The notes under the pieces are model-generated. The model did no database searches. It was not told where the DNA came from and saw only the letters and a program-made list of their open reading frames with translations. A DNA stretch of 64,000 nt from a bacterium (GTDB lineage Bacteria; Verrucomicrobiota; Kiritimatiellia; CAIKKV01; CAITUY01). Positions 3,247 to 59,749 of this stretch are shown here, piece after piece. The stretch is taken from positions 17,714-81,713 of the forward strand of contig JBAXWB010000011.1 in NCBI GenBank assembly GCA_037128595.1. The letters run 5' to 3'. The translations under genes were made by a program, and so were the position numbers. Numbering within the stretch: the stretch's first letter is position 1; every line of letters starts with the position of its first letter.

Positions 3247-3454
3247 TGCGACCTTTGGTCAGGTCGTAGGGGGAAATTTCCACGGTAACCTTGTCGCCGG
3301 AAGTGATACGGATGAAATGCTTGCGCATTTTCCCGGAGATATGAGCGAGGATTTCGTGCCCGTTCTCCAATTTCACCCGATACATGGTCGCGGGCAAAAC
3401 CTTGGTCACGACTCCATCAACGCGGATCATATCATCTTTTGCTTCTTCGGCCAT
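3224..3454 (-). CDS. infA: translation initiation factor IF-1
   Basis: [21 protein letters not shown]...[13 protein letters not shown] is classic IF-1 (S1-like OB fold). Start chosen at the internal ATG preceded by AGGAG with a 6-nt spacer. The longer ORF-track start lacks an SD. Confidence 0.9.
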
Positions 3455-3622
3455 AGTCTCTCCTGAATATCCCAACCAATTAATTCGGTCGAATAGATAC
3501 CATGCCCTCCCCCTTATTGTCAATATTGAGGAAAATATCTGATTGAATCCAACCCCTCTTGATGGTACTTTCTGCCGCTCATTTCCGGAGCCAGTAACGG
3601 GCTCTCAGCCAGGAGTATTCTC

Positions 3623-41949: not shown

Positions 41950-42786
41950 TTATCTCTGGAATTCGCGCGGATCGAGCGGCTGGATCGTGAAGTCCGGCTT
42001 CCAGTTGGGCGATTGACTGTAAAAGGCCATCGCATTGTCACAGGTCAGCCGCCGGATATCCGCATCGGGAAAACCATCCAGGCGGAGCCGCTCCACCACC
42101 TTGACCAGACTCAAGGGATCGGAGACGCCCCAATCGGCGGACCCGTTCACGATCATCCGTTCGCTGCCATACTCGCCGATAATCGCCGCGACACGCTCCG
42201 GATTGAGTTTGGAAATGGGATAGACCGTCATCCCGCAATAGCAGCCGCTCTCGCGGGCCAGCAGGATTGTCTCCTCGGTGTTGTGATCAATCACCACCCA
42301 GTCCGGATTGATCCGTTCCGCCCTGATGATTTCAATGGTCCGCTTGGTTCCCCTCAGTTTATCCACATGCGGCAGATGCACAATCACCGGCATGTGATGC
42401 TCATTCGCCAGATGAAGCTGACGGACAAAGGCGACTTCCTCATTGGGCGTGATGGCGTTGAACCCGATTTCCCCGATGGCCACACAACGCGGATGCATGA
42501 GATACGGCTCCAGGCCATCCATCACCTCTTTGGCCAAAACCATATCCTCGGCCTCTTTGGGATTGAGCGACACGGCGGCATAATGATCGATGCCAAACCG
42601 CCGCGCCCGGACCGTTTCAAACTCGAGAATCAGATCAAAGTAATCGAAGAACGTTCCTGCATACCGGCGATTGCGCCCCATCCAGAAGGAGGGCTCCACA
42701 CAAGCCCTGATACCGGCCAGGTACATGTTGATGTAATCATCGGTCGTCCGCGAATACATGTGAATATGCGGTTCAATAATGGTCAT
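41950..42786 (-). CDS. metal-dependent TIM-barrel hydrolase (TatD / amidohydrolase-2 superfamily)
   Basis: IEPHIHM N-terminal metal-ligand motif and later His/Asp ligands. The exact family is not certain. Confidence 0.5.
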   Translation of the reverse strand: MTIIEPHIHMYSRTTDDYINMYLAGIRACVEPSFWMGRNRRYAGTFFDYFDLILEFETVRARRFGIDHYAAVSLNPKEAEDMVLAKEVMDGLEPYLMHPRCVAIGEIGFNAITPNEEVAFVRQLHLANEHHMPVIVHLPHVDKLRGTKRTIEIIRAERINPDWVVIDHNTEETILLARESGCYCGMTVYPISKLNPERVAAIIGEYGSERMIVNGSADWGVSDPLSLVKVVERLRLDGFPDADIRRLTCDNAMAFYSQSPNWKPDFTIQPLDPREFQR

Positions 42787-42794
42787 AGCAGCCC

Positions 42795-43835
42795 CTATTT
42801 GGAAAAAGTTATCCTTGGATCAATCAACGTATAACAAAAATCCGAAATAATGTTACCGAGAAGTCCCAGAATGGAGGTCAGGGCCAGGATGCCCATGAAC
42901 ACCGGATAGTCACGTCCGACAATCGCCTCCAGACTCAGCCGGCCCATCCCGGGTATCTCGAAAATCTGTTCAATGATGACGGAGCCGGCAAACATGACGC
43001 CCAGAATGCCGCCGATCCCAGTCGCAATTGGAATCAACGCATTGCGCAAAGCGTGGCCCCACACCGCCCGCCGGGCTGACCCGCCCTTGGCCAGGACCGT
43101 TCGCAGATAATCCTTACCGATCTGATCCAGGAGTGAATTTTTCATCAGCAGGGTCAACACCGCAAATCCCCCGATGACATAGCAGAGCACCGGCAGCACC
43201 ATATGCCAGATCGCATCACCCACCTGCCCCAGCCAGGAGAGGGATTGATAGGACTCCGAATGAACCCCGGAGAGCGGAAAGAGATCCCATAGATTTTCCG
43301 CCGTACCGCAGAGCAGCATCTTCAGCACCATTCCAAAAGCCACGGTGGGAATCGCATAGCCGGTCAGCACGATCACACTGGACCCCAGGTCAAAGGCGCT
43401 GCCATTCTTCAGTGCCTTGCTGATTCCCAGCGGGATACAGATCAAGTAACTCAGGACCACGCCGGTCAGCCCGAAAACCAGCGACACCGGCATCCGCTCC
43501 CGGATCAATTGCCAGGCGGTCTTATTGGGATACTTGAAGGAGTCCTGCTGCATCCCCAGCCGGTCGTGGACCAGCCACTTCCAATATTGGGTAAGAAACG
43601 GCTTATCGAAGCCAAAATGCTTTTCCAGCGCCTTGCGCTGTTCCGCCGTAATGGTCCCCGAGGCGCCCGCCGCCATCTTCCCTTCCCCGGCGTTGATGCC
43701 TTTCATCTGCATGATGATCTGCTCCACCGGCCCGCCGGGCACCACCTGAACCAGGCCATAGCACATGAGGGTAATTCCCAGAAACGTGGGAATCACCAGC
43801 AACAACCGCCTGATAAAATAAGTGGTCCGCTCCAT
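42795..43835 (-). CDS. ABC transporter permease, YejB/OppB-like (long periplasmic loop between TM1 and TM2)
   Basis: BPD transport-system inner-membrane signature in the C-terminal half. Start at MERTTYFIRRLL. No partner ABC genes are adjacent. Confidence 0.7.
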   Translation of the reverse strand: MERTTYFIRRLLLVIPTFLGITLMCYGLVQVVPGGPVEQIIMQMKGINAGEGKMAAGASGTITAEQRKALEKHFGFDKPFLTQYWKWLVHDRLGMQQDSFKYPNKTAWQLIRERMPVSLVFGLTGVVLSYLICIPLGISKALKNGSAFDLGSSVIVLTGYAIPTVAFGMVLKMLLCGTAENLWDLFPLSGVHSESYQSLSWLGQVGDAIWHMVLPVLCYVIGGFAVLTLLMKNSLLDQIGKDYLRTVLAKGGSARRAVWGHALRNALIPIATGIGGILGVMFAGSVIIEQIFEIPGMGRLSLEAIVGRDYPVFMGILALTSILGLLGNIISDFCYTLIDPRITFSK

Positions 43836-43930
43836 AAAAAAACTCCGTGCCTCCCAAAAACCGGAGACACGGAGAATACTACACGCGATTAGCCCCAAGA
43901 AGAAAAATTTAACCGCGAAACACGCTAAAA

Positions 43931-43992: not shown

Positions 43993-45447
43993 TTAGACCA
44001 CGTAGGTGGTCGCCACGGTCGAGCCACCGGATCCTGTCCAATTGGTATGGAAGGCTTCCCCGCGCGGCTTGTCCACGCGCTCATACGTATGGGCGCCGAA
44101 GTAGTCGCGCTGCGCCTGCAGCAGGTTCGCCGGCAACCGCTCACAGCGGTACCCGTCATAATAATTCAGGGCCGCACTCATCGAAGGCATCGGGATTCCC
44201 AGCTTGATCGCCATGGAAAGCGTTTTCCGCCAGGAAGTCTGGGACCGCGCCGTCGCCTTCTGGAAGAAGGGATCCATCAGCAGATTATCGAGACCCGGGT
44301 TCTTGGTGAACGCCGTCTTGATCTTGCCCAGGAAGGCGGAGCGGATGATACAGCCACCGCGCCACATCAAGGCGATCCCGCCATAGTTCAGATCCCAGCC
44401 ATTTTCCTTGGCCGCCGCCCGCATTACCTGATAGCCCTGGGCATAGGACACAATCTTCGAGGCATACAACGCCTTGCGCAGATCCTTGATCATGGCCGCC
44501 TTGTTCCCCTTGAACACGGCCTTGGGGCCCACCAGCACCTTCGAGGCGGCAACGCGCTCGGACTTGATGGCTGAAATGCAGCGAGCAAACACGGCCTCGG
44601 CAATCAAGGTCAGCGGCATTCCGGAATCCAGGGCCGCAATCACGGTCCACTTACCGGTTCCCTTCTGGCCGGCTGCATCGAGGATCAGATCCACCACTTC
44701 CTGGCCCTGTTCATTCTTGTAGCCCAGGATGTCACGGGTGATCTCGATCAGATAGCTATCCAGTTCGCCCTGATTCCATTCGGTAAACACCTGATGCATT
44801 TCGGCATTGGTCATGCCCAGACCATTTTTCATCATGTGGTAGGTTTCGCAGATCATCTGCATATCACCATACTCAATCCCGTTGTGAACCATCTTCACAA
44901 AATGGCCGGCACCGTCCTGACCCACCCAGTCGCAACAGGGTTCGCCTTTGTCCGTCATGGCGCAGATCTTCTGGAAAATGGGCTTCACATGGGGCCAGGC
45001 CGCAGGCGAGCCGCCGGGCATGATGGACGGGCCCAGCAGGGCGCCTTCTTCACCGCCGCTGACGCCGGTGCCGATGTAGAGCAAGCCCTTGCTTTCAACA
45101 TATTTCGTCCGGCGCGTGGTGTCCGGGAAATGGCTGTTTCCGCCATCAATGATGATATCGCCCGCTGACAGATGAGGAATCAACTGCTCGATGAACTCAT
45201 CCACCGGCTTGCCAGCCTTGACCATCAACATGATTTTCCGGGGACTCTTGAGCTGGCTGACCAACTCGGGGATACTGTGGGCGCCGAGAAGATTCTTTCC
45301 CTTACCGCGGCCGGCGATAAATTCATCCACCTTGCTGGTGGTCCGGTTATAACACGCCACGGTGAAACCCTTGCTCTCCATATTGAGCACCAGGTTTTCG
45401 CCCATTACCGCCAACCCGATCAATCCGATATCTGCTTTTTGCATCAT
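43993..45447 (-). CDS. gnd: 6-phosphogluconate dehydrogenase (decarboxylating)
   Basis: IGLIGLAVMGENLVLNM Rossmann N-terminus and a full-length 484-aa Gnd pattern. Confidence 0.95.
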   Translation of the reverse strand: MMQKADIGLIGLAVMGENLVLNMESKGFTVACYNRTTSKVDEFIAGRGKGKNLLGAHSIPELVSQLKSPRKIMLMVKAGKPVDEFIEQLIPHLSAGDIIIDGGNSHFPDTTRRTKYVESKGLLYIGTGVSGGEEGALLGPSIMPGGSPAAWPHVKPIFQKICAMTDKGEPCCDWVGQDGAGHFVKMVHNGIEYGDMQMICETYHMMKNGLGMTNAEMHQVFTEWNQGELDSYLIEITRDILGYKNEQGQEVVDLILDAAGQKGTGKWTVIAALDSGMPLTLIAEAVFARCISAIKSERVAASKVLVGPKAVFKGNKAAMIKDLRKALYASKIVSYAQGYQVMRAAAKENGWDLNYGGIALMWRGGCIIRSAFLGKIKTAFTKNPGLDNLLMDPFFQKATARSQTSWRKTLSMAIKLGIPMPSMSAALNYYDGYRCERLPANLLQAQRDYFGAHTYERVDKPRGEAFHTNWTGSGGSTVATTYVV

Positions 45448-45469
45448 TATTTCTCCATTTAGTAATTAT

Positions 45470-46315
45470 TTATACGCCACTGAATGCGCTGAACCCGCCA
45501 TCCACGGGAATCACCGTCCCTGTCACAAATCCCGCGGCTTCCGCACTCACCAGCCACAAGAGGACCCCGACCAGATCTTCGGACGAGCCGAATTTTCCCA
45601 TGGGGGTGTGGGCAATGATCGTGTTCCCGCGCGCCGTTAAACTTCCATCCGGCTTGGTCAGCAACGCCCGGTTCTGATCCGTCAGGAAAAAGCCGGGGGC
45701 AATCGCGTTGACCCGGACCCCGACCTTCGAGAAATGAACGGCCAGCCATTGCGTGAAATTGCTCACCGCCGCCTTCGCGCCGCTATACGCCGGAATCTTC
45801 GTCAGGGGGGTAAAGGCATTCATCGAGGAAATGTTGATGACCACCCCTGCCCCGGCTTTCGCCATGGACTTGGTGAACACCTGGGTCGGCAGAAGCGTGC
45901 CCAGGAAATTCAGATTGAACACAAACTCGATGCCCTTGGGATCGAGATCATAAAACGTGGTGATCCCCTCGACCGCCTGGTTCAGATCCTCAGGCATCAG
46001 GTACTCGCGTGAGGTCGTGCCTTTGGGATGATTGCCGCCAGCGCCATTGACCAGGATCGATACCGCGCCCAGCTCTTTTTCGACGAGAACATTCGCCTGC
46101 TCCAGGCTGGCCTTGTCGAGGACATTGCACGCCACGCCGATGGCCTGGCCGCCGGCGGCCTTGATCTCGGCCGCAACCCGGTCCGCATTCTCCTGCTTGA
46201 GGTCGGCCACCGCCACCTTAGCGCCACATTGGGCCAATGCCTTGGCCATCGTACTGCACAACACTCCGCCGCCGCCGGTCACCAGCGCGACTTGTCCCTT
46301 AAGATTCACGGTCAT
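45470..46315 (-). CDS. SDR family oxidoreductase (sugar/sugar-acid dehydrogenase-like)
   Basis: TGGGGVLCSTMAKAL Rossmann motif and a YSGAK catalytic motif. Start at MTVNLKGQVALVTGG. Confidence 0.8.
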   Translation of the reverse strand: MTVNLKGQVALVTGGGGVLCSTMAKALAQCGAKVAVADLKQENADRVAAEIKAAGGQAIGVACNVLDKASLEQANVLVEKELGAVSILVNGAGGNHPKGTTSREYLMPEDLNQAVEGITTFYDLDPKGIEFVFNLNFLGTLLPTQVFTKSMAKAGAGVVINISSMNAFTPLTKIPAYSGAKAAVSNFTQWLAVHFSKVGVRVNAIAPGFFLTDQNRALLTKPDGSLTARGNTIIAHTPMGKFGSSEDLVGVLLWLVSAEAAGFVTGTVIPVDGGFSAFSGV

Positions 46316-46334
46316 CGGTACTTTCACACACACC

Positions 46335-47621
46335 TCATTTAGTTGTTTCCAAGCCACCCAGTTCCGCCGGCGCATGTTTCAGCCGGTACAGAATTTCGCC
46401 CGCTTTGGGCACATACAGAATTCCCTCATCCTCACGTCCGACATAATCTGCAGGGTTGATGGTCCGGTAATCCATCCAGCCCATATTGATCTTCCGGCAA
46501 ATGGCTTCCGGGATCCCCGTCGCCAGCACCACGTTCACACGCCCTTTTTCCACGCCATTTTCATACGTGCCAATCCCACGCACATGGGTCGAATGGGCCA
46601 GCACGCCCCAAGGGTAATTTTTAAACTTATCCCACTGTTTCAGGAAATAATCACGGGTATGATAACCCAACTCCTCAATCAACCGGCCGTGGGAGACCGA
46701 TACCTCGGTGATGTGCGGGGCATAAATAATCAGGGTCCCGCCATCCGCGACGACGGGTTCCAGTTTATACATGCACTTGGCGCCCACCCACAGGTCGTCA
46801 TACATCTTCGGCGCACAGGAGAGCACCGTATGGAACGGCTTATCCTTGAATTCAATGTGGATCTTCCGGGAGAGATCGGAAGCCTCTTCCCAGGCGCCTT
46901 CAGGCGTGCCGGCATACAGCCCGGCCAGATCATGCCCCTTCACCACCATGCATAACGCCTTGCGTTCCACCTTCAGCAGGGACGCCGCCCGGTCCACGAC
47001 CTTGCGCACCGGGGTCCATTTGCTGCCAATGATCATCGGATTGGTGATCACCGCGCCCAGCCAGTGGAAGAAATTCAGGATTTCCTCACCCGCAATGCCG
47101 GGGAACAAATATTTGTTTCCGCCGGAGAAACCGACGACTTCATGGGGGAACACCGGCCCCAGAATCACCAGCAGGTCGTAATTCTGCACCATCCGGTTGA
47201 TCGAGACGCCCACGTCCATTTCAAACAGGCCCCCCGTTAACTCCCGGACATCGGCCTTGGACAGGCGGCCGACCTCGAACAGCGCCTCCGGATTGTTCCA
47301 CTCATGATTGAAAAAGCGGGTGCGGGCATATTTCGAGCGGTGCTCTTCCTCGGTGATCTCCACGCGGGCATAGATCTGATCCATCGGCATAGGCGGATGC
47401 GTTCCCAGGGCGACCATGAAATCCAATTGCGCCGCATCCCCGGCCGCCTCCTGGACCAGCCGGAACATCATGCCCAGCGGACAGGACCGCGTGGCATCCG
47501 GAATAACAACCAGTACTTTGCGGCCGCGCACCTTCCAGGAGGCAAACGCCTCCTGACAAATCCGCCTGGCCTCCACCTCAGTGACCGCCTTATCCGAAAA
47601 TCCTAATCCGATGGTTTTCAT
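46335..47621 (-). CDS. LarA-family protein (nickel-pincer-nucleotide-dependent 2-hydroxyacid racemase/epimerase homolog, DUF2088)
   Basis: GTHPPMP and GFSGGNKYLFPG (the Lys aligns with the NPN-tethering Lys of LarA), plus His-rich C-terminal motifs. Start at MKTIGLGF. Confidence 0.65.
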   Translation of the reverse strand: MKTIGLGFSDKAVTEVEARRICQEAFASWKVRGRKVLVVIPDATRSCPLGMMFRLVQEAAGDAAQLDFMVALGTHPPMPMDQIYARVEITEEEHRSKYARTRFFNHEWNNPEALFEVGRLSKADVRELTGGLFEMDVGVSINRMVQNYDLLVILGPVFPHEVVGFSGGNKYLFPGIAGEEILNFFHWLGAVITNPMIIGSKWTPVRKVVDRAASLLKVERKALCMVVKGHDLAGLYAGTPEGAWEEASDLSRKIHIEFKDKPFHTVLSCAPKMYDDLWVGAKCMYKLEPVVADGGTLIIYAPHITEVSVSHGRLIEELGYHTRDYFLKQWDKFKNYPWGVLAHSTHVRGIGTYENGVEKGRVNVVLATGIPEAICRKINMGWMDYRTINPADYVGREDEGILYVPKAGEILYRLKHAPAELGGLETTK

Positions 47622-47672
47622 GGGAGAAATCCTATCCATTCACCTGCAAATCATGCAAGTCATATCACGATC

Positions 47673-48590
47673 TCATACGTTTGAGGTGGCTCTGAGGCCC
47701 TCTTCCAACCCGAACTTGGGGACATACCCCAGGGCCTCACGAATCTTGGAGATATCCGCGAGGGAATGTTTGATGTCCCCGGCACGTGCCTCCTTGAATT
47801 GGGGGGTGACCTGAACGCCTATGATGGTTTTCAGGGCATCCAGCAGTTGCAGCAATGACACCGTCTTGCCGGTCGCCACATTGAATACCTCACCGTGCCC
47901 CACTTTCGCCGACCGCATAGCCAGGAGATTGGCCTGCACCACATCTTTGACATACACAAAGTCACGGGTCTGCTGGCCATCGCCGAAGATGGTGGGAATC
48001 CGGCCACTCCGGAGGTCATCCGTAAACCGCGAGATCACCCCTGAGTACATCGACTTCCCGTCCTGCCGGGGGCCAAACACATTGAAATAGCGCAAGGCCA
48101 CGGTTTCGACCCCATACAGGCTGCTGTACAGTTTCAGGTAATACTCACCTGTCAATTTTCCCAGGGCATAGGGGGATTCCGGTTCAGGCAACATATCCTC
48201 GCGCTTGGGGAGCACGGGATTATTGCCATACACCGCCGCCGAGGTGGCGAACACCACGCGTTTGACCTTGGCCTCACGGGCAGCCTGCAGCACATTCAAC
48301 GTGCCGCGAATGTTGATCGAGTCATTGTCGATGGGCTTTTCAACGGAAACGCCTACGGACACCAGGGCCGCCTCATGAAACACCCGCGACACGCCCTTCA
48401 TGGCGGCACGCAACGCCTCAGGATCACAGACATCGCCGCGGATGACCTCAATCCCCTCACCAAAGCCCTTGAGGTTTTCCAGTTTTCCGCTGGAGAAATT
48501 ATCAAAGACCCGGACCTTCGTTCCCTCTGCCACTAACGCTTCAGCGATGTGCGAGCCAATAAATCCACAACCACCTGTAATTAATATCAT
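47673..48590 (-). CDS. NAD-dependent epimerase/dehydratase family protein (UDP-sugar 4-epimerase-like)
   Basis: ILITGGCGFIGSH and YALGKLTGEYY (YxxxK). Start at MILITGG, because the longer ORF-track start would overlap the upstream gene by 50 nt. Confidence 0.8.
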   Translation of the reverse strand: MILITGGCGFIGSHIAEALVAEGTKVRVFDNFSSGKLENLKGFGEGIEVIRGDVCDPEALRAAMKGVSRVFHEAALVSVGVSVEKPIDNDSINIRGTLNVLQAAREAKVKRVVFATSAAVYGNNPVLPKREDMLPEPESPYALGKLTGEYYLKLYSSLYGVETVALRYFNVFGPRQDGKSMYSGVISRFTDDLRSGRIPTIFGDGQQTRDFVYVKDVVQANLLAMRSAKVGHGEVFNVATGKTVSLLQLLDALKTIIGVQVTPQFKEARAGDIKHSLADISKIREALGYVPKFGLEEGLRATSNV

Positions 48591-48642
48591 GGCCGTACTG
48601 TTCCATTTAGAACGTTTATGCGCAAATACAATGTCATCCAGG

Positions 48643-49722
48643 TCAGCGTTTAACGCGCGCGTTACCCTGCCAGATACTCCAGATCTGTTCTTCATCCGCC
48701 GGTTGCCCGTAGTCCGTCAGAACCGTCGTGGCAAAGGCCCCGCTAGCCCAGCCGAACTCGATCCACTTCTGCGGCGCCCACCCCTTGAGGATGGCATACA
48801 GCATTCCGCCCACAAAGCCATCACCGCCGCCAATCCGGTCCAATACCCCGATTTCACGCGGCTCGACGACATGCCAGTCATCCCCGGCCAGCATGACGGC
48901 CCCCCACAGATGCTGCTGGGCACTGATGACCTCACGCAACGTCGTGGCAAAAACGGAGGCATTCGGGTAGGCCACTCTGACGCGTTCGATCATCCCCTTA
49001 AATCCCGCCATCTTGGCGGCCAGCCCTTTACCCCCGGCTTCCGGGCCCTCAATCCCCAAGCAAAGCTGGAAGTCCTCTTCGTTCCCGACCAGGATATCGG
49101 AAACACTGGCGATTTCGCTGAAGATCCCGCGGAGTTCCTTCTCCCGGTTCTTCCAGAACGAGGCGCGGTAGTTCAAGTCAAAGGAGATGCGGGTGCCATG
49201 CTTTTTCGCGGCACGGGCCAGCGCCAGACAGAAGGCACCGGTTTCCGGCGACAAGGCTCCGACCAATCCGGACAAATGCACGATCTGCACCCCCTCTTTA
49301 CCGAAGATCCGGTCCAGATCGAAATCTTTCACATTCAGCGTGCGACCGACTTCACCCGCGCGATCATTGTACACGCGCGGTCCACGGGACCCGTACCCGC
49401 TATCGGCGATGTTGATCTGGTGCCGGTAGCCCCAGGGTCCGTCCTGCACCACTTCTTTGCCTTCGTAAAGCATATGCCGGCTGGCCAGGTTGTCCTTGAT
49501 GATCTGGGCCATCGGGCTGTCCTTGACAAAGGTCGTCAGGATTTTGACCGGAAGCCCGAGATAGGAGGCCACGCTGGCCACATTGGTCTCGGCACTGGTG
49601 GCCTGAAGGGTGAAGGTGTTACTGCAATGCACCGGCTGGCCGTTGATCGGGGTCAGGCGGAGCCCCATGCTGGTGGGGACAAGAAGTGAATACTTGAACT
49701 CTTTTTTCAACTCGATCTTCAT
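48643..49722 (-). CDS. PfkB-family sugar kinase (2-dehydro-3-deoxygluconokinase-like)
   Basis: Ribokinase-like fold with a C-terminal GGGDGFVGGMLYA anion-hole/GAGD-type motif. Confidence 0.75.
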   Translation of the reverse strand: MKIELKKEFKYSLLVPTSMGLRLTPINGQPVHCSNTFTLQATSAETNVASVASYLGLPVKILTTFVKDSPMAQIIKDNLASRHMLYEGKEVVQDGPWGYRHQINIADSGYGSRGPRVYNDRAGEVGRTLNVKDFDLDRIFGKEGVQIVHLSGLVGALSPETGAFCLALARAAKKHGTRISFDLNYRASFWKNREKELRGIFSEIASVSDILVGNEEDFQLCLGIEGPEAGGKGLAAKMAGFKGMIERVRVAYPNASVFATTLREVISAQQHLWGAVMLAGDDWHVVEPREIGVLDRIGGGDGFVGGMLYAILKGWAPQKWIEFGWASGAFATTVLTDYGQPADEEQIWSIWQGNARVKR

Positions 49723-49741
49723 GATGGGAACCTTTCTCTAA

Positions 49742-51001
49742 TTACTTCGTTACCGGGAAAACAAGTTTAATATGCCGTCCGTAAAAGTTGGCTTCCACAT
49801 TGCGTGCCACACTGCCCCGGTGCGTCTCCAACGCATTCAGGAACCGGTCGCCCATTTCCGCCGCCACCTTATAACCGACATGCAACAGCTGCCTGAGATT
49901 GGGGTTATAGCCGGGCACCATCTTGTTGTGACGCAACGCCGCCACAAACGCGGCACTGTTCCATTGCGCCACCTGTTCAGCCGAAGGCAGTGCCTTACGG
50001 TCAATATCAATCACTTCGGCATAAGGCCCGCACAGTTCATCAAACCGGCCGAGCGCCGCCGTGTAGACCTCCTTGGCAATCACCAGCCCATCGCCGCCCG
50101 CCTCCGCCAGCCCGATCACTTCCTCAAGCCAGGTCGTACCGGCCGTCTTCAGGTGCAGTCCGGCGCCGGTTTTCTGCAAGATTTCCCGGATCGGGCCATA
50201 AATCTCGAATTTATCACTTCCCGAATGGACACTCAGCTTCAGGTTGGCCGGCAGGTTGAACCGCTGACAGGCGAGCCGGATCACGGCCACATCCGCCTCA
50301 AACTCACGGGCGAACTGCGTCACGTCCCCGACATAGTCCACCCCCTTGTTAAAACGACCGGAGAAACGCGGCGCGATCGTCTGGGCCGGAATCCCCTCAT
50401 CCGCGATGGCCGCGAGAATCAGAAGCAACTCGGGCGGCGTCTGCGGCGTCATGGTTTCATCCATGGACACTTCCGTCACAAATTTGCCAGCCCCTTTCTG
50501 CGCCTCGATTTTACGGTAAATCCGGCCGGCCTCCTGGATGGCAAACAGATATTTCCCGGCCACCCGTTCGAGCAGGTCACGGGTAATGACCAGCGGCTCG
50601 GCGAGCCCTTCGACCGGCAACTCCCCGCACCAGCTGCTGTATTTTTCCACGAACGCCTTGACTGCGGCGGGCTCGGCGGCCGTCCCGATCGCGCTGGCGA
50701 CGTCAAGGGTGAAAAAATCGCTGGAGGAGATAAACCCGTCCACCGTTTTAAAGTTGATGTGGTCGGCATCGACAAAGTAAGGGAAAGACCAGCCCATGGC
50801 CGCCACGGCCGCATCGGCCGCCTTGCGCACACTCGGAGGCTCGGTATGGATGATGGAGTGTTCGCGGAATGACTTGTTCCAGACCGGCGAGACTTCAATC
50901 CCCTCTTCCCGGGCGCGGAGTAAGGCCGTCAACTGGGCATTCCCCTCCCGCGCGAAACGATCGCCCACACCCATGGTAAATTTCGGTAGTTTCATCTGCA
51001 T
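49742..51001 (-). CDS. putative sugar-acid epimerase/isomerase, TIM-barrel (possibly UxaE tagaturonate/fructuronate epimerase family)
   Basis: 419 aa, DADHI metal-ligand-like motif, and hexuronate/gluconate-type neighbours. The family call is tentative. Confidence 0.35.
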   Translation of the reverse strand: MQMKLPKFTMGVGDRFAREGNAQLTALLRAREEGIEVSPVWNKSFREHSIIHTEPPSVRKAADAAVAAMGWSFPYFVDADHINFKTVDGFISSSDFFTLDVASAIGTAAEPAAVKAFVEKYSSWCGELPVEGLAEPLVITRDLLERVAGKYLFAIQEAGRIYRKIEAQKGAGKFVTEVSMDETMTPQTPPELLLILAAIADEGIPAQTIAPRFSGRFNKGVDYVGDVTQFAREFEADVAVIRLACQRFNLPANLKLSVHSGSDKFEIYGPIREILQKTGAGLHLKTAGTTWLEEVIGLAEAGGDGLVIAKEVYTAALGRFDELCGPYAEVIDIDRKALPSAEQVAQWNSAAFVAALRHNKMVPGYNPNLRQLLHVGYKVAAEMGDRFLNALETHRGSVARNVEANFYGRHIKLVFPVTK

Positions 51002-51089
51002 TGCGCTCTCCCTTTTAATCGCATCTGTTAGAAATTAAAAACTGTTTCTGAATATTTTTTGCGCCCTTCGCCGTCTTTCGCACAAAATC

Positions 51090-52019
51090 CTATCTCCCGA
51101 GAAACCGAAGCGGGTTGTCCCGCCCAAGCCGGAGCATGTTTGCCTCAGACAAATCGCTCCATGATCGTAACCAGGCGATACAGTCCGCCATAGTGGCAGA
51201 GGAGCCGGCCAGGGAAGACCCATTTGCCAAAGCGATCCGGCCTGATGGTTCACTGACAAGCTCAGTCCCCATCCAGTTATAGCGGCCGGGCGGAAGTCCC
51301 GCAATCGGCGCCGCATCGCTGGTCACAATGCACCGGTCAAGCCCTTTGGCGCGCAACGCCACGGACACAAACTCCTTGGGCAAGTGGTGGCCATCCGTGA
51401 TCAACAGTGCGGATAACCGGTCCTCGGCCAACTGGCACCAGATCGGGTTCGGATGCCGGGGCAACGTGTTCGGGATACCGTTCCCCAGATGGGTACAACC
51501 GCGGGCGCCCGCCCGGACCGCCCGGTCAATACTCGCCCCATCTGCAACATGATGTCCAAGCAGAACCACCACGCCACGGGTCACCGCGTGCCTGATCAGC
51601 GTTTCGGCCCCTTCAATTTCCGGGGCCACCGTCAGTAAGGCAATGTGCCCCTTTGCCAGCGTCAGCCAATGGTCCAGCAGCTGCACATCGGGCTTCTTCA
51701 GCAGTGCCGCCTGATGGGCACCCCGGCCGTCGAGCGATAAAAAAGGCCCTTCCAGATGAACCCCGAGCAGGTGGGGCTGGAGATCCGGCTCCTCCATCGC
51801 AGCGGCCAGAACGGGCAGATTTTCCTCATACCGCGCCAGCTCGGCGGTCACGATCGTAGGGCAATACGCGGCCGTCCCACGCTTCACCAGATCCACGGTC
51901 GCCCGGCGAACATCCGCCACCGTCAGGCCGGGGGAGGAAAAATCCACCCCGACATGACCGTTAACCTGGAGGTCAACCCAGCCATCCGGCACCACACGGT
52001 TCATCGGCAGGTTGCTCAT
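51090..52019 (-). CDS. amidohydrolase, N-acetylglucosamine-6-phosphate deacetylase (NagA)-like but short (309 aa, lacks the N-terminal beta-sandwich)
   Basis: VDLQVNGHVGVDF matches the NagA HxH/GxDF region. 4-nt overlap with the upstream aminotransferase. Confidence 0.55.
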   Translation of the reverse strand: MSNLPMNRVVPDGWVDLQVNGHVGVDFSSPGLTVADVRRATVDLVKRGTAAYCPTIVTAELARYEENLPVLAAAMEEPDLQPHLLGVHLEGPFLSLDGRGAHQAALLKKPDVQLLDHWLTLAKGHIALLTVAPEIEGAETLIRHAVTRGVVVLLGHHVADGASIDRAVRAGARGCTHLGNGIPNTLPRHPNPIWCQLAEDRLSALLITDGHHLPKEFVSVALRAKGLDRCIVTSDAAPIAGLPPGRYNWMGTELVSEPSGRIALANGSSLAGSSATMADCIAWLRSWSDLSEANMLRLGRDNPLRFLGR

Positions 52020-53392
52020 GAGTGACTTTTCATCACCTCGTCAACCGCCGCTTCAAACACCACCAGGGACTCACGCAAGGCCTCTTCATCAATGCTGAGC
52101 GGAGGCGCAATCTTGATGCACTCCCCTGCAATTCCCACCGGGGCGAACATCATCAGCCCGCGGTACAGACAGGCGAGGTTGATCTTCAGTGCCAGAGCCG
52201 GATCCGGCGTCCGGGTTCCCGCCTTGACCGCCTGGATACCGGCGACCATGCCCTTGCCCTGACAGCAGCCCAACACGGACGGATAGCGCCCCTGGATGCG
52301 GCGCAGTTCGGCCACAAACCAGGTGCCCAACCGCTCCGCACGCTCCACCAGTTTCTCGTCCTTGAGCACCTTCAGGTTGGCAATGGCCGCAGCGACGGCC
52401 AGCGGCGACGCGGAATGGGTGGAGGTCATGGAGCCCGGAGGATAGAGGGACATGATGTCCTTGCGCCCGATCACCGCCGAGATCGCCAGCGAAGAGGAGA
52501 TGCCCTTACCGCAGGCAATCAGGTCGGGGGTGATCCCGTAATGCTGGAAGCAGAATAGTTTGCCCGTCCGGCCAAACCCGGCCTGAACCTCATCCATCGT
52601 GAGGACGATATCGTGTTCGCGACAGAAGGCGGCCATTTTCTGGGCATACTCCACCGGCAGGAAATCAGGGCCAATCCCCTGATAACTCTCCACCATCACG
52701 CCGGCGATCTCTTTCGGGGTGACGCCCTTCTCTTTCAACGTCTTCAGGAACAGGTCAAAGGAGACATCCTGGTTCTTATACCCATCCGGGAAAGGCACCT
52801 GCACAAACGACGCATCCGGCTCGCCCATCCAGATTTTCAACTTCGCCATGCCGCCCGCCAACTGGGCGCCCATCGTGCGGCCATGGAAGGCATTGTTGAA
52901 GGTAACCATGTACTTCTTGCCCGGCCCGTGCTTCTCGAGGGCATAGGTCTTGGACAGCTTGATGCAGTTTTCCGTGGCTTCGCTACCCGTGCTGAGCAGG
53001 AAGGCCAGGTAATTATCCGGATCCGGGGCCAGATCGCTCAGCATCTTGACCAGGGTGGCCCGCCCTTCATGAGGAAACACGTAGGTGGCCAGCAGGGGGC
53101 GGTCCAGCACTTCACGGATGGCCTTACAGATCGCGGGATGCCCATGCCCCGCGTTGGTGATCAAGACCCCTGACGACCAGTCAATCCACCGGTTCCCCCA
53201 GCGGTCCGAGATGGTGGCGCCTTCGGCCTTGTGCCAGACAATCGGCGGTTGACCGGCCATCGATCGCGGCTCGGAGATGCGCAACGCCTCGAAGACCGGT
53301 AACGATTCCGGCACCGGAATCGCCGTGCAAATCGTGCGGAACTTTGTGTTTACATGCGGAACAACAACTGGAGTCAGACTATATTCAGCCAT
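52016..53392 (-). CDS. class-III (PLP fold type I) aminotransferase
   Basis: GSEATENCIKL and DEVQAGFGRTGKLF (PLP-Lys) motifs. Confidence 0.8.
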   Translation of the reverse strand: MAEYSLTPVVVPHVNTKFRTICTAIPVPESLPVFEALRISEPRSMAGQPPIVWHKAEGATISDRWGNRWIDWSSGVLITNAGHGHPAICKAIREVLDRPLLATYVFPHEGRATLVKMLSDLAPDPDNYLAFLLSTGSEATENCIKLSKTYALEKHGPGKKYMVTFNNAFHGRTMGAQLAGGMAKLKIWMGEPDASFVQVPFPDGYKNQDVSFDLFLKTLKEKGVTPKEIAGVMVESYQGIGPDFLPVEYAQKMAAFCREHDIVLTMDEVQAGFGRTGKLFCFQHYGITPDLIACGKGISSSLAISAVIGRKDIMSLYPPGSMTSTHSASPLAVAAAIANLKVLKDEKLVERAERLGTWFVAELRRIQGRYPSVLGCCQGKGMVAGIQAVKAGTRTPDPALALKINLACLYRGLMMFAPVGIAGECIKIAPPLSIDEEALRESLVVFEAAVDEVMKSHS

Positions 53393-53394
53393 AA

Positions 53395-54666
53395 TTACTT
53401 CCTTCTTGCTTCAACGTGCGGTTGATCACCATAGACAATATTTACCCATTCCCCATCGGCCACAATCGATAGACGTGCCGCCTCAACGACCAGTTCATTG
53501 ATGTAACTGTTGGCCGGAGTGGCGAGCAACCCGGCCGCATCGACCTCACGAATGAGCTCGCGGCGTTTCGGCAAGGCGGTTTTTTCAGGGAGACTCACGG
53601 TCTCATTTTCAATCCGGCTCATGGTCTCGATGCTGGCGGCCACCGACGCATATCCGTAACCGACCGGCTTGTATCCCGCCCCTTCCCAGGGCACCAGCCG
53701 ATAGAAGTCCGGGCTGACATAGTTGTAGCGTGTCCCTGCGCATCCGATCTCCTCAAGGTAATTGTGGCGCACCCCGCGATCCTGGTCATTATGCTGGATC
53801 ATGCCCGTCCGGTCTTTCCCTTCGCAGTACATCAGCAGCCCCTGATCATTGCTGCCCGCGGCGGAATCCGGATAACCCAGCCCGTCACTCACCGTCAGGA
53901 GGGCCCCATTCTCATACCGGATCCGGCCATTGGCCCAGAGATAGCCCTCTTTCCCGTTGGGGAACAGGCCCTTGACACCCGAGACGGACACCGAGACCGG
54001 CTTGAGCCCGGTGATGAAATAGACCAGGTCAACATAGTGGCAGCCCACATAAACAAAGGGATCGGTCTTGTCGCAGGTGAACCAGTTCTGGAAATTGGAA
54101 TGCCGGTAATAGTAGGGCTCATACAATTTGGCATCGCCCATTTTGAACTCGCCGAACTGCCCCAACGCATACTGGCGCTTGGCCATCAGCGAGCGGACAT
54201 CGAACCGCTTGTGATACTCAACGCCTACAAACAATCCCCGCTCCAGGGCCAGCTTCTCAATCTCCACCGCCTGAATATAGGACAGGACCAGCGGCTTGAC
54301 GCAGAGCACATGCTGACCTTTCAGGATGGCCGCCTTCACAATCTCATAATGGAACTGGTCCGGCACCGCCACAATGACGGCCTGGCGGGGCGCCAGCGCG
54401 GCCAACCGCTCATTAAAGAGCGCAGGGAACATCCGGTCCGGCGGCTCGGTCAGGGGTGGATACGCCTCAAAATCCTGACCCGGAAACGCCTCCTTGAGTT
54501 CGCGACTGTCTTTGAGCGCCTTCAGCGGAGCGCTGTTCAACGCACAAACCTCGATCCGTCCAACGACCCCCACCCGTTGCAGATGGTACACCGAAGGGAG
54601 GATCAGATCATTGGTGATCATGCCCCCGCCCACAATCATGACATCCAACTTCACGCGCTCACTCAT
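53395..54666 (-). CDS. Gfo/Idh/MocA family NAD(P)-dependent oxidoreductase
   Basis: MIVGGGMITNDLILPS Rossmann N-terminus and a GFIM-type C-terminal domain. Confidence 0.8.
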   Translation of the reverse strand: MSERVKLDVMIVGGGMITNDLILPSVYHLQRVGVVGRIEVCALNSAPLKALKDSRELKEAFPGQDFEAYPPLTEPPDRMFPALFNERLAALAPRQAVIVAVPDQFHYEIVKAAILKGQHVLCVKPLVLSYIQAVEIEKLALERGLFVGVEYHKRFDVRSLMAKRQYALGQFGEFKMGDAKLYEPYYYRHSNFQNWFTCDKTDPFVYVGCHYVDLVYFITGLKPVSVSVSGVKGLFPNGKEGYLWANGRIRYENGALLTVSDGLGYPDSAAGSNDQGLLMYCEGKDRTGMIQHNDQDRGVRHNYLEEIGCAGTRYNYVSPDFYRLVPWEGAGYKPVGYGYASVAASIETMSRIENETVSLPEKTALPKRRELIREVDAAGLLATPANSYINELVVEAARLSIVADGEWVNIVYGDQPHVEARRK

Positions 54667-54766
54667 TCATTAACTCCTTTTTTCAAACTGATGGCCGCAC
54701 TACATCAAATCGCCGCCAACACGTCAACCTCATTCGTATGAGATATGCAAAAGGATTAAATCAACC

Positions 54767-55645
54767 TCATCCAGCCGAGGTGATGACCACCCGCCAGTCA
54801 CAGGCAAACGAGGTCCCTGGCTCCAGCATGATCAGGCCGGGTTTATTCATCAGTTCGCCATCGTGGCTGGCCGGATCGGCATGGCCATACCAGGGCTCAA
54901 TGCACACAAACGGGGCGCCGGGCTTGGCCCAGATGCCCAGATCGGGATAACCGGAAAATTCAACCGTCACCCGGCGCGGGTGCCGGCGCGAGCACAAGCT
55001 GACCTTCCGGGATTTGATTTTCAGAAAAATCAAGGCATCGCGGTCAAACAGGTCGCGCCGGAGCGGCAGCACGCTCTTATTCGACAACACCCGCTCCGTT
55101 TTACCGGATAGCAGGCCATTGGCATCGAGCAAATGGGTATCCAGCCGTTCCGCCTTTTCAAACTTCAAGGCGTAGTCCTCCACCTTGTCCCCGGCCCCCC
55201 AGGTCAACGCAAACCCCGGATGCTCGCCAATGGAAAACGGCATGACGGTGGTCCCGGTATTGGTCACCTCCGTGGTGACCTCCACCGTGCCCCCCGACAG
55301 GCGATAGTGGCGGACGAGCGAGAAATCGAAGGGATACTGCTTCCGGGTGGCAGGCGATGCCTGGAGCCGGTACGACAGGGAACTATCCGAGGCGTCCAAC
55401 AACTCGAAGTCCGTATCCCGGGCAAAGCCGTGCGGGGCCATCTCGTAGTCACGCCCCTCGAAACGATAACGCCCGCCGGCGAGTTTGCCGACAATGGGGA
55501 ACAGCAGCGGGGCATGCCGGGGCCAGATGGCCGGATCCGCCTGCCACAGGTATTCCGTGCCATCCGCCGCTTTCAACCCGCACAACTCCGCGCCATGACG
55601 TTTGACCGTCACCGACAACAGTGAATTTTTAATCGTATTCTGCAT
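54767..55645 (-). CDS. aldose 1-epimerase (galactose mutarotase-like) family protein
   Basis: YLWQADP...PLLFPIVG...HGFAR...EPW motifs of the mutarotase superfamily. Confidence 0.75.
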   Translation of the reverse strand: MQNTIKNSLLSVTVKRHGAELCGLKAADGTEYLWQADPAIWPRHAPLLFPIVGKLAGGRYRFEGRDYEMAPHGFARDTDFELLDASDSSLSYRLQASPATRKQYPFDFSLVRHYRLSGGTVEVTTEVTNTGTTVMPFSIGEHPGFALTWGAGDKVEDYALKFEKAERLDTHLLDANGLLSGKTERVLSNKSVLPLRRDLFDRDALIFLKIKSRKVSLCSRRHPRRVTVEFSGYPDLGIWAKPGAPFVCIEPWYGHADPASHDGELMNKPGLIMLEPGTSFACDWRVVITSAG

Positions 55646-55791: not shown

Positions 55792-56101
55792 TTTACCACG
55801 GAGGAGCGGAGATTTAGAGAGAGAGCAGGAAATGCAAATGTGGCGTTTATTTCGCCCCCATGAGTACATGTGGCCGAAATAAACGCCACGGTTTCCTTGA
55901 GGAATACAGGAGTGCCTTTCGATACCTCAAATAACTCACTGCAGGTAAACTCGCGGCACAGCACGTCATCTTTAGCTCCACTCACTTGGTATTACTCCAG
56001 AAAAACCGGTGCGGGATTTGTAATTCGGGTACTCCGGAATTACAAATCCCGCACCATTATATTTGTATTCTCTCCCTAAATCTCCGCTCCTCCGTGGTAA
56101 A
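55792..56101. mobile_element. MITE-like non-coding element, roughly 310 bp, bounded by 32-bp terminal inverted repeats (TTTACCACGGAGGAGCGGAGATTTAG[A/G]GAGAGA, 31/32 match) and containing two long perfect internal hairpins
   Basis: Seen in sequence. Left TIR 55792-55823, right TIR 56070-56101. Hairpin A has a 15-bp stem (55840-55854 / 55875-55889). Hairpin B has a 19-bp stem (56008-56026 / 56037-56055). No ORF, and lower GC than the flanks. Confidence 0.55.
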
Positions 56102-56165
56102 CGTTCTCTTTATTTTGTGCGTTTTATTGGCCCGGTTTTGCGCTATGCTTTGCGCCCTCATGACC

Positions 56166-57086
56166 ATGAAGGCTCAAATCAAGGCGCTGGCCACGGATCT
56201 CGGATACCATGCCTGCGGAATCACCGGGATGCAGCCGTTTGATGACTATCAGACGGCGCTCACCCAGCTATCCGCCCGCTTCCCGGATGCCGCCGCCCTC
56301 TATCAGGGAATGGAGCGCCGCATCAATCCCTCCACCTTTGCGCCCTGGGCAAAATCGATTGTCGTCGCCATCCGGCGCTACGGGAAATATGATGTCCCCA
56401 ATGCCATCACCCGCCATATCGGCCGCAACTATCTCTGTGACCGCCGCATCAAGGCCTGTCCGGACACTACCCTGCCCAAACGCATGAAGCAGGGACTCAG
56501 CGCACTGGGCCATCGCGTCAAAGTCGGAGGGATTCCCTGCCGCGAAGCCGCGGTGCGGGCAGGGCTGGTTCAGATTGGCCGTAACGGGTTCGCCTATGCC
56601 GAAGGGTGCGGCTCATGGTTGAATATCGAGGCGTGGTTGATAGATGCCGAAATTGAGCCCGACGCCCCTTCCGCACTGGCGGCCCCCTGCCCGCCCGGTT
56701 GCCGGGCCTGTCTGGACGCCTGCCGGACCTGCGCCCTGAGTGAACCCTATGTGGTGGACATGAAGCGCTGCATCGCTTACCTGACCTATGAGGAAGACCA
56801 GCCGATCCCCGATGAATTGTGGAATAAAATGGGGCCCTGGGTCTATGGCTGTGATGACTGCCAGAATGCCTGCCCGATGAACCGGGGGAAATGGGAGCGC
56901 CTTGAGCCGGCCTCCTGGATTGAGTCCGTCGCCAACCAGCTGACGCCGGAATCGCTCGCCAGCATGGATGCGGAGACCTACCAGAAGCTCGTCTATCCGC
57001 TCTTCTGGTACATTTCCGAAACTGACCTGGAACGATGGCACCGCAATGCCCGCCGGGCGTTACAGGCCGTTCGCGCGCCGGGCTGA
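56166..57086 (+). CDS. queG: epoxyqueuosine reductase QueG-like (4Fe-4S, DUF1730-type)
   Basis: CPPGCRACLDACRTCAL and CDDCQNACPMN ferredoxin-type clusters. N-terminal domain with IKALATDLGYHACGIT. Start uncertain (ATG 56145, 56160 or 56166) and no clear SD. Confidence 0.6.
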   Translation: MKAQIKALATDLGYHACGITGMQPFDDYQTALTQLSARFPDAAALYQGMERRINPSTFAPWAKSIVVAIRRYGKYDVPNAITRHIGRNYLCDRRIKACPDTTLPKRMKQGLSALGHRVKVGGIPCREAAVRAGLVQIGRNGFAYAEGCGSWLNIEAWLIDAEIEPDAPSALAAPCPPGCRACLDACRTCALSEPYVVDMKRCIAYLTYEEDQPIPDELWNKMGPWVYGCDDCQNACPMNRGKWERLEPASWIESVANQLTPESLASMDAETYQKLVYPLFWYISETDLERWHRNARRALQAVRAPG

Positions 57087-57944
57087 TTCGACGGTGTTAT
57101 AGAGCAGCATGGTAATCGTCATGGGCCCCACCCCGCCGGGCACCGGCGTGATCATGCTCGCCTTGGCCATGCAGCCTTCAAAGTCGGCATCGCCAACCAA
57201 CCGGAAGCCCGCCTTCTTGGTGGCGTCTTCAATGCGGTTCACCCCGACATCAATCACCACGGCGCCCTCACGGATCATATCCGCAGTCACCGTATTCGGA
57301 CGCCCCGCCGCCGCAATGACGATATCCGCCTGCCGCGTATAGTGCGCGATGTTCCTGGTCTTGGTATGACAGACCGTCACCGTCGCATTGCCCAACGGCC
57401 CCTTGGCCATCAGCATATTGGCCAACGGCTTGCCAACGATATTGCTGCGCCCGACAATGACCGCATGCGCGCCCTCGACCTTTACGCCGCTCCGGAGCAG
57501 CATCTGTAACACCCCATGCGGGGTGCAGGGCAAAAAGGCTTTTTCGCCCACGACCATCCGCCCGACATTGGTGGGGTGGAACCCGTCCACATCCTTATCC
57601 GGATCGATGGTGACCAGGACTTCACTCTCATTTAACTGCTTGGGCAGCGGCAACTGCACCAGGATGCCATTGATTTTCGGGTCGGCATTCATCTTCCGGA
57701 TCAAGGCCAGCAGTTCGGCCTGGGTGGCATCAGCCGGGAGCCGATTGTCATCCGAGAAGATCCCGATCTCATGGCAGGCTTTTTCCTTGGCTGTCACATA
57801 GGACCGCGAGGCAGGATCATCGCCGACCAGAATCACGCCCAACCCGGGCACAATCCCTTTTTCCTTCAGCTGCCTGATCTCAACCGCCAGTTCTTCACGA
57901 ATCTGCCGGGCAATCTCTTTTCCATCGATAATTTTTGCGGTCAT
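57060..57944 (-). CDS. folD: bifunctional methylenetetrahydrofolate dehydrogenase / methenyl-THF cyclohydrolase
   Basis: MTAKIIDGKEIARQIREEL and VGDDPASRSYV with a GRSNIVGKP NAD(P) motif. Its 3' end overlaps queG convergently by 27 nt. Confidence 0.93.
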   Translation of the reverse strand: MTAKIIDGKEIARQIREELAVEIRQLKEKGIVPGLGVILVGDDPASRSYVTAKEKACHEIGIFSDDNRLPADATQAELLALIRKMNADPKINGILVQLPLPKQLNESEVLVTIDPDKDVDGFHPTNVGRMVVGEKAFLPCTPHGVLQMLLRSGVKVEGAHAVIVGRSNIVGKPLANMLMAKGPLGNATVTVCHTKTRNIAHYTRQADIVIAAAGRPNTVTADMIREGAVVIDVGVNRIEDATKKAGFRLVGDADFEGCMAKASMITPVPGGVGPMTITMLLYNTVESARRANGL

Positions 57945-57957
57945 GGTTTCCTTGGAC

Positions 57958-59730: not shown

Positions 59731-59749
59731 AAATAGTCCTTTATTCCGC

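Follow-up and report, generated by a model that had tools for sequence, protein, structure and literature searches.

The stretch of DNA analyzed here, referred to as the window, comprises 64,000 nucleotides of contig JBAXWB010000011.1 and belongs to a bacterium of Kiritimatiellia-like lineage. At positions 43993–55645, the list of open reading frames (ORFs) features ten closely spaced genes on the minus strand, one of which encodes a homolog of the nickel-pincer enzyme LarA. An earlier note on this DNA had described six of them—a TIM-barrel (UxaE-like) epimerase, a PfkB kinase, an NAD-epimerase, the LarA homolog, a short-chain dehydrogenase/reductase (SDR), and gnd—in this order on the minus strand, which Pfam and NCBIfam scores confirm. 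The linkage to gnd holds as well, although gnd itself lies just beyond the interval 45470–51001 that had been given for the cluster. The LarA homolog is predicted to be a D-mannonate/D-gluconate 2-epimerase that depends on the nickel-pincer nucleotide (NPN). The Pfam scans covered 50 long ORFs across the window. The ten genes and the end of the cluster are as follows, in the direction of transcription:

54767–55645, minus strand: aldose 1-epimerase (Pfam Aldose_epim)
53395–54666, minus strand: Gfo/Idh/MocA oxidoreductase (Pfam GFO_IDH_MocA)
52016–53392, minus strand: class-III aminotransferase (Pfam Aminotran_3)
51090–52019, minus strand: NagA-like amidohydrolase (TIGR00221, 169 bits, under the cut-off of 226)
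49742–51001, minus strand: UxaE-family protein, short form of 419 amino acids (Pfam UxaE, 168.5 bits; gathering score 27.1)
48643–49722, minus strand: PfkB kinase (Pfam PfkB, 59 bits)
47673–48695, minus strand: GalE-like NAD epimerase (Pfam Epimerase, 203 bits; likely true start M36 at 48590)
46335–47639, minus strand: LarA homolog (Pfam Lar_N, 73 bits; gathering score 23.3; likely true start M7 at 47621)
45470–46375, minus strand: SDR of the D-mannonate oxidoreductase type, i.e., a UxaD-like fructuronate reductase by family (NCBIfam NF006132, 425 bits; cut-off 281; likely start M21 at 46315)
43993–45447, minus strand: gnd, NADP-dependent decarboxylating 6-phosphogluconate dehydrogenase, the last gene of the operon (TIGR00873, 767 bits; cut-off 427)
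43843–43874, minus strand: intrinsic-terminator-like hairpin (12-bp stem with 8 G-C pairs, then seven T's), about 120 bp past the gnd stop codon

The internal starts given for the LarA homolog, the SDR, and the GalE-like protein agree with the lengths of their homologs, and with them the apparent gene overlaps vanish. The hairpin is located in the gap between gnd and a downstream permease gene and is by far the strongest terminator-like site of the region in a scan by consensus only, in which the total of such sites is not above that of shuffled sequence. Because of this hairpin, the operon most likely ends at gnd.

The nearest solved structure to the LarA homolog is 4NAR (1e-61), which is GntE2 (TM0442) of Thermotoga maritima, a D-gluconate 2-epimerase (PMC7583248); further matches in the PDB are 2YJG (2e-7), 6D6Z (1e-6), and 5HUQ (7e-5). 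The GFSGGNK motif pointed out in the earlier note is present, and in the alignment its Lys176 falls on the Lys that tethers NPN in LarA and GntE2. In the residue alignment, K176, H192 (in FFHW), and R51 correspond to K164, H180, and R41 of GntE2 and represent the NPN tether, the nickel ligand, and the phosphate-binding Arg, respectively, and the catalytic residues D48, H81, H166, and K288 are all present. In 118 relatives—full-length database proteins with 63–98% identity to the LarA homolog—the positions D48, R51, H81, H166, E167, K176, H192, W284, and K288 are invariant. The tethering Lys and the His ligand, whose loss the earlier note had named as speaking against its proposal, are thus kept on alignment, and the invariance of all catalytic and NPN-binding residues across the relatives points to purifying selection.

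LarA homologs have been divided into groups, and the reference sequences of groups 18, 19, and 20 from Dataset S2 of PMC7583248 were compared with the window protein by BLASTP. The closest is group 19, with 40–60% identity to seven of its members: 49–60% to the nonactinobacterial ones (from Planctomycetes, Truepera, Roseiflexus, and Nostoc), 44% to the actinobacterial member of Kribbella, and 40.5% to the assayed LarAH19/GntE1 of Corynebacterium glutamicum. Identity to group 20 is 34–35%, including GntE2 with 35%, and to group 18 it is 26–27%. The pocket signature of group 19 consists of Glu and Val after the catalytic His, W-(T/V)-x-(A/G)-K in helix α11, and (L/I)-A-H-S-T-H-x-R in helix α14. 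The window protein features H166-E167-V168, W284-V-G-A-K288, and L347-A-H-S-T-H-V-R354 at these places. All 20 signature positions fit the group-19 rows, and the pattern D-R-H-H-E-V-K-H...W..K...A-H-S-T-H is invariant or nearly so in the 118 relatives. By these identities and by the fit of every signature position, the LarA homolog is classified as a member of group 19 (GntE1 type, "G2E2"). LarAH23 of Isosphaera, which was assayed with a negative result, was considered as an ortholog and rejected, as it carries another signature (an L,Q loop) and belongs to a different group. The best NCBIfam model is NF052594, a putative hexonate epimerase of group 18, with 178.5 bits at a cut-off of 500, and the protein is not a member of that family.

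The UxaE-family protein matches 6IL9, the UxaE of Cohnella laeviribosi, with E = 3e-27 and is predicted to be a candidate tagaturonate/fructuronate epimerase. The SDR exceeds the cut-off for D-mannonate oxidoreductases, and a more distant SDR type of Verrucomicrobiota still reaches 308 bits on the same model; as gluconate 5-dehydrogenases, these SDRs score 167–173 bits, under the cut-off of 279. The PfkB kinase matches 2AFB, the 2-keto-3-deoxygluconate (KDG) kinase of T. maritima, with E = 2e-30, and its NCBIfam matches are KDG kinases, every one below its cut-off. Its candidate functions are those of a 6-kinase for gluconate or mannonate and, alternatively, of a KdgK in a parallel Ashwell branch. 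The NAD-epimerase that the earlier note had counted in the cluster is present, but it probably has no part in the sugar-acid steps: the best PDB matches of this GalE-like protein are UDP-GlcNAc and UDP-Glc 4-epimerases (6WJB with 1e-72, WbpP, and WbgU), and it is a clear homolog of UDP-hexose/UDP-HexNAc 4-epimerases whose gene is predicted to be cotranscribed with the sugar-acid operon.

A pathway with this set of genes is known. The T. maritima operon aldH-pelB-gnd-uxaR-uxaE-uxaD-gntE-gntK encodes galacturonate catabolism (PMC3750489), and the route runs from tagaturonate via fructuronate, mannonate, and gluconate to 6-phosphogluconate. According to the original proposal, mannonate is connected through GntE with gluconate and with the pentose phosphate or phosphoketolase pathway (PMC6978723; PMC7583248). 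GntE1, GntE2, and the oomycete LarAH15 epimerize D-mannonate/D-gluconate with NPN (PMC7583248; PMC11770544). Hence, the combination of a LarA homolog with a UxaE-like enzyme, which the earlier note did not recognize as a known pathway, had already been published: T. maritima has a matching gene set (PMC3750489), and the activity of GntE has been demonstrated biochemically (PMC7583248).

The window cluster likely encodes a hexuronate-to-pentose-phosphate shunt of the T. maritima type. The UxaE-family enzyme would convert tagaturonate to fructuronate, the SDR would reduce fructuronate to D-mannonate, and the LarA homolog would epimerize D-mannonate to D-gluconate. A kinase—possibly PfkB, otherwise one encoded elsewhere—would phosphorylate D-gluconate to 6-phosphogluconate, from which Gnd would form ribulose 5-phosphate and CO2. 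At the LarA homolog, NPN would be tethered to Lys176, with the nickel ligated by His192. NPN would accept the hydride from C2 of the hexonate, His81 and His166 would act as the acid/base pair, and C2 would be inverted when the 2-keto intermediate takes the hydride back on its opposite face. This mechanism is assigned to the LarA homolog because of the conserved residues and because it is established for LarA. From family membership, residue conservation, and gene context, which are observed, we infer the substrate and the sequence in which kinase and epimerase act.

The gene context was compared across related loci. More than 8000 database proteins match the LarA homolog, and 441 genome loci carry a relative, mostly in Verrucomicrobiota, Kiritimatiellia, Lentisphaerae, Planctomycetota, and Armatimonadota; the nearest genomes by the LarA homolog are two metagenome-assembled genomes (MAGs), one unclassified with 95% identity and one of Kiritimatiellia with 89%. 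The comparison set consists of the best 80 of these 441 loci. In 54 of the 80, the LarA homolog stands next to an SDR of the mannonate oxidoreductase family, so the clustering is not a matter of chance. A P-loop gluconokinase occurs in 12 loci (a representative reaches 180 bits on TIGR01313; cut-off 114), UxaC in 9 (630 bits on NF002794 for a representative; cut-off 387), and an FGGY kinase in 6, its best match being TIGR01314 with 229 bits, under the cut-off of 649. UxaE-like orthologs with 53–67% identity are found upstream of the SDR–LarA homolog pair in 8 loci of Planctomycetota, Armatimonadota, and Verrucomicrobiota, several of which also carry UxaC and gluconokinase. The gnd gene is present in 10 of the 80 and in all close relatives, where it adjoins the LarA homolog and the SDR and is 62–97% identical to that of the window. 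The full hexuronate route is encoded in single gene strings in loci L029, L014, and L059. L029 has the order UxaE, SDR, LarA homolog, GntK, UxaC, whereas L014 and L059 feature UxaE, UxaC, SDR, and LarA homolog plus an FGGY kinase, which immediately precedes the LarA homolog in L014 and immediately follows it in L059. Since the SDR and the gluconokinase score above curated cut-offs and UxaC and UxaE are nearby, this context favors the interconversion of mannonate and gluconate as what this branch of group 19 does physiologically. The earlier note had proposed a 2-epimerase of the gluconate/mannonate type that feeds 6-phosphogluconate, and this proposal gains support from these neighbors—mannonate oxidoreductase, gluconokinase, gnd, UxaC, and UxaE—as well as from group-19 membership and the signature residues.

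The closest relatives (L001, L002, and L081–L085) share a unit consisting of an APH kinase, the GalE-like gene, LarA homolog, SDR, gnd, an Opp/Nik permease, and a TatD-like gene. All close relatives have the GalE-like gene immediately upstream of the LarA homolog, yet only 4 of the 80 loci do. The APH kinase sits where the window has the UxaE-like gene and PfkB, and the occurrence of APH in the close relatives versus PfkB in the window implies an exchange of the kinase position within one lineage. This APH-family (PF01636) kinase is located at 7903–9033 in L001, 7943–9076 in L002, 1742–2872 in L081, and 7937–9061 in L083 and resembles, by eye, N-acetylhexosamine 1-kinases. A broader "kinase slot" filled by five kinase families was considered and discarded, because the PFK-like neighbor in L013, L015, and L043 is a genuine pyrophosphate-dependent phosphofructokinase (NF010675, 378 bits; cut-off 273). 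In the Spartobacteria loci L040, L045 (7756–9129), and L054, an ORF that by eye resembles a medium-chain, Zn-dependent alcohol dehydrogenase separates the UxaE-like gene from the string SDR–LarA homolog–GntK.

The genes for NPN biosynthesis are larB, larC, and larE. The Pfam scans gave no match to AIRC (LarB), Ni_insertion (LarC), or LarE in the window, in keeping with the earlier note. Among the 80 loci, larB and larC lie within 10 kb of the LarA homolog in 3, two of which also have larE. In L014, larE, larB, and larC were identified by a motif scan and then by Pfam, with 457 bits for LarC on Ni_insertion; used as tblastn queries, they recover larE, larB, and larC in L014 and L055 and larB and larC in L041. 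The genes occupy 11389–14893 in L014 and 13837–16744 in L055—both MAGs of Capsulimonadaceae (Armatimonadota)—beside UxaE, UxaC, SDR, FGGY kinase, and LarA homolog, so that the hexuronate shunt and its cofactor genes share one locus; in L041, larB and larC are found at 2841–5022. For published group-19 genes, lar genes are nearby in only 19–33% (PMC7583248, Table S1). Since lar genes are usually unlinked, their absence from 64 kb says little, and NPN is presumably supplied by lar genes elsewhere in the genome.

Upstream of the UxaE-like gene, the segment 51090–55645 with the genes for the NagA-like protein, aminotransferase, oxidoreductase, and aldose 1-epimerase is probably a separate module, although it may be cotranscribed with the sugar-acid operon. 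The module was surveyed in 80 metagenome loci fetched with the aminotransferase (L086–L165). The pair of Gfo/Idh/MocA oxidoreductase and aminotransferase is kept in 66 of them, followed by the NagA-like gene in 14 of the 66, and none of the 66 carries a LarA homolog, an SDR-gnd combination, or a UxaE-like gene. Only in the window and in locus L043 of Armatimonadota is the pair joined to LarA homolog, SDR, and gnd. As the pair is widespread without a LarA homolog, its assignment to the sugar-acid pathway was rejected, and the segment is treated as an adjacent separate unit. Frequent companions of the pair are a truncated NagA-like amidohydrolase, a dehydrogenase of the Glu/Leu/Phe/Val type, and a LacI regulator, and this composition suggests that the module serves in catabolism by removing an amine from an amino sugar or aminocyclitol; no relevant precedent emerged from the literature when an amino-sugar pathway with oxidoreductase, aminotransferase, and deacetylase was sought. 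A larB homolog is located 3–4 kb upstream of the pair in L102 (5911–6729), L104, and L110, the Pfam AIRC scan having covered L102. A link between LarB and the module was dismissed, as L102 has the order LeuA, LarB, TauE, Glu dehydrogenase, oxidoreductase, aminotransferase, with no LarA homolog between them; the proximity of larB in the three loci is probably coincidental.

Several observations weigh against the hexuronate shunt with free mannonate as substrate. For GntE1, the only assayed enzyme of group 19, the Km with D-mannonate is 120 mM, and the authors of the study doubted that mannonate is the native substrate (PMC7583248); because of this value, the native group-19 reaction was left open in 2020. 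No NCBIfam equivalog covers the LarA homolog in the NCBIfam scan, so public records name its relatives only "lactate racemase domain-containing protein". The closest relatives carry no UxaE-like gene. In the window, the Pfam scans detected neither UxaC nor GntK nor an FGGY gluconokinase, which leaves the entry and kinase steps without a gene here or encoded elsewhere; UxaC and a gluconokinase could be located elsewhere in the genome. Finally, tblastn with LarE, LarB, and LarC of L014 gave no match in the window at E ≤ 1e-4.

The doubt about mannonate gives room to a different pair of C2 epimers, either L-gulonate/L-idonate—connected via 5-keto-D-gluconate to D-gluconate—or D-glucarate/D-mannarate, the latter having been suggested for group 19 by Desguin et al. 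2020 (PMC7583248). Gulonate, idonate, and altronate are also absent from the main text of the 2024 survey. Nevertheless, such a pair is unlikely, as the SDRs of the window and of the more distant type score far better as D-mannonate oxidoreductases (425 and 308 bits) than as gluconate 5-dehydrogenases, and the neighbors UxaE and UxaC indicate tagaturonate and fructuronate. The by-eye alcohol dehydrogenase ORF of L040, L045, and L054 stands next to an IdnK-type kinase and fits the gulonate/idonate variant, the arrangement being similar to the idnD-idnO-idnK set of the L-idonate pathway of Escherichia coli; aldarate genes were not seen. Another possibility concerns the order of steps: the PfkB kinase—or APH in the close relatives—would phosphorylate D-mannonate, and the LarA homolog would epimerize 6-phospho-D-mannonate to 6-phosphogluconate for Gnd. 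Extracts of Lactobacillus suebicus convert mannonate only with ATP and via 6-phosphomannonate, a route described without its genes (PMC6978723). The window and its close relatives tie the LarA homolog to gnd in the company of a different kinase and without a gluconokinase of the GntK type, and the Km of GntE enzymes for free mannonate is high throughout, with 9–120 mM (PMC7583248; PMC11770544). A reversed order is quite improbable all the same, given that GntE1, GntE2, and LarAH15 act on unphosphorylated mannonate and that a bona fide gluconokinase of the GntK/IdnK type stands beside the LarA homolog in 12 of the 80 loci. Moreover, no phosphate-binding feature was identified, and PfkB, which resembles KDG kinases most, could have its place in the Ashwell branch. 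It would be a long shot, then, to regard the group-19 LarA homolog of gnd-linked, GntK-less operons as an orphan 6-phospho-D-mannonate 2-epimerase and the adjoining PfkB or APH as an orphan mannonate kinase; if true, the L. suebicus route would gain its genes, and the poor Km of GntE1 for free mannonate would be explained.

The upstream module could also be read as the front end of a single amino-sugar pathway, in which it would make a keto-uronate from an N-acetylated amino sugar or amino-uronic acid and thereby replace UxaC, feeding the UxaE-like protein, SDR, LarA homolog, and Gnd. In the window, the genes of the module and of the sugar-acid operon are on the same strand with short gaps, and an apparent operon in L043 consists of oxidoreductase, aminotransferase, a distant UxaE-like gene, SDR, LarA homolog, gnd, NagA-like gene, and Glu dehydrogenase; UxaC is absent from both. 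The independence of the oxidoreductase–aminotransferase pair, seen in 66 of 80 loci without LarA homolog, SDR-gnd, or UxaE-like gene, makes this very unlikely, and the closest relatives by the LarA homolog lack the module, while the chemistry is conjectural, with no precedent found in the literature. It is considered less likely than the orphan 6-phospho-D-mannonate 2-epimerase. Least credible is a nonfunctional or cofactor-less relic in an organism unable to make NPN. It would account for the finding that neither the window nor the flanks of about 10 kb around the closest relatives contain larB, larC, or larE, but the retention of every catalytic and NPN-binding residue under purifying selection in relatives of 63–98% identity is difficult to reconcile with it; lar genes are in any case nearby for only a minority of group-19 genes (19–33%), and they do adjoin the family of the LarA homolog in L014, L055, and L041. 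The hexuronate shunt via D-mannonate and D-gluconate therefore remains the favored reading.

On either side, the cluster is flanked by genes of other kinds. Past the terminator, a lone permease of the Opp/Dpp/Nik family of ATP-binding cassette transporters and a TatD-like protein of the amidohydrolase fold are encoded at 41950–43898 on the minus strand, and this pair always follows LarA homolog, SDR, and gnd in the close relatives L001, L002, and L081–L083. The best NCBIfam matches of the permease are YejB with 292 bits and the nickel permease Opp2B with 194 bits, all under the cut-offs. A role as nickel importer is not claimed, since every score is below its cut-off, the best match is YejB, and the gene lies beyond the terminator; a connection with the supply of nickel is conceivable, though unsupported. 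Divergent from the cluster, 55986–60769 encodes a 4Fe-4S protein followed by FolD, formate-tetrahydrofolate ligase, and a pterin-binding protein. These one-carbon/folate genes are unrelated to the sugar-acid cluster, and a PocR/AraC regulator is located beside them at 60812–62203. Rfam and tRNA scans of the window yielded nothing.

The window cluster is a further example of a published pathway; the pathway itself is not new, and nothing here will surprise a specialist. It extends the shunt with a nickel-pincer epimerase of the GntE type to Kiritimatiellia-like bacteria, in which it would form a redox-neutral link leading from hexuronates of plant or microbial origin into the pentose phosphate pathway. 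Judged by the numbers of proteins and genome loci given above, the shunt is very common in the Planctomycetes–Verrucomicrobia–Chlamydiae group and in Armatimonadota. The neighbor context bears on a question that the discoverers of group 19 did not settle, namely its native reaction, and a curated group-19 model would correct many of the records that now carry the lactate racemase name.

Compared with known systems, the LarA homolog is closest to GntE1 and group 19, with which it shares the 20 signature positions including the E-V loop, the Trp in helix α11, and A-H-S-T-H in α14. The published neighbors of group 19 are glucuronate isomerase, SDR, LarB, LarE, and LarC (PMC7583248, Table S1), i.e., a context already containing UxaC and an SDR, and its members include Planctomycetes, Deinococcus-Thermus, Chloroflexi, and cyanobacteria. 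Unlike these, the window belongs to a Kiritimatiellia-like lineage that was not sampled in the 2020 set, and has no adjoining lar genes. Its linkage to gnd is a context published for group 18, not 19: the neighbors of group 18 are SDR, 6-phosphogluconate dehydrogenase, a ribokinase-family kinase, and glucuronate isomerase (PMC7583248, Table S1). LarA of Lactiplantibacillus plantarum (5HUQ) features the same fold and the same catalytic and cofactor-binding residues, its D72, R75, H108, H174, K184, H200, and K298 corresponding to D48, R51, H81, H166, K176, H192, and K288. However, it is very distant (E = 7e-5 with partial coverage), and its pocket carries F-F and W-T where the window protein has E-V and S-T; as judged from its sequence, the LarA homolog is not a lactate racemase.

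The L. suebicus route (PMC6978723) is alike in leading from mannonate to 6-phosphogluconate and Gnd, and the kinase beside the epimerase in the window is likewise nonclassical; that route has been described from extracts, without its genes. The T. maritima operon offers the closest match in pathway logic: UxaE, an SDR mannonate oxidoreductase, a LarA-family 2-epimerase, and Gnd are encoded together in both, consistent with a path from hexuronate via mannonate and gluconate to 6-phosphogluconate. GntE2 is only 35% identical to the LarA homolog and belongs to group 20, and the UxaE of T. maritima has about 480 residues compared with 419 in the window. The window features PfkB instead of a GntK of the FGGY type and carries neither a regulator of the GntR type nor pectinase genes. 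Relative to the published route, the window thus differs in three respects: UxaC and GntK are missing; the PfkB kinase is KDG-kinase-like; and an unrelated oxidoreductase/aminotransferase module, itself widely conserved, lies upstream.

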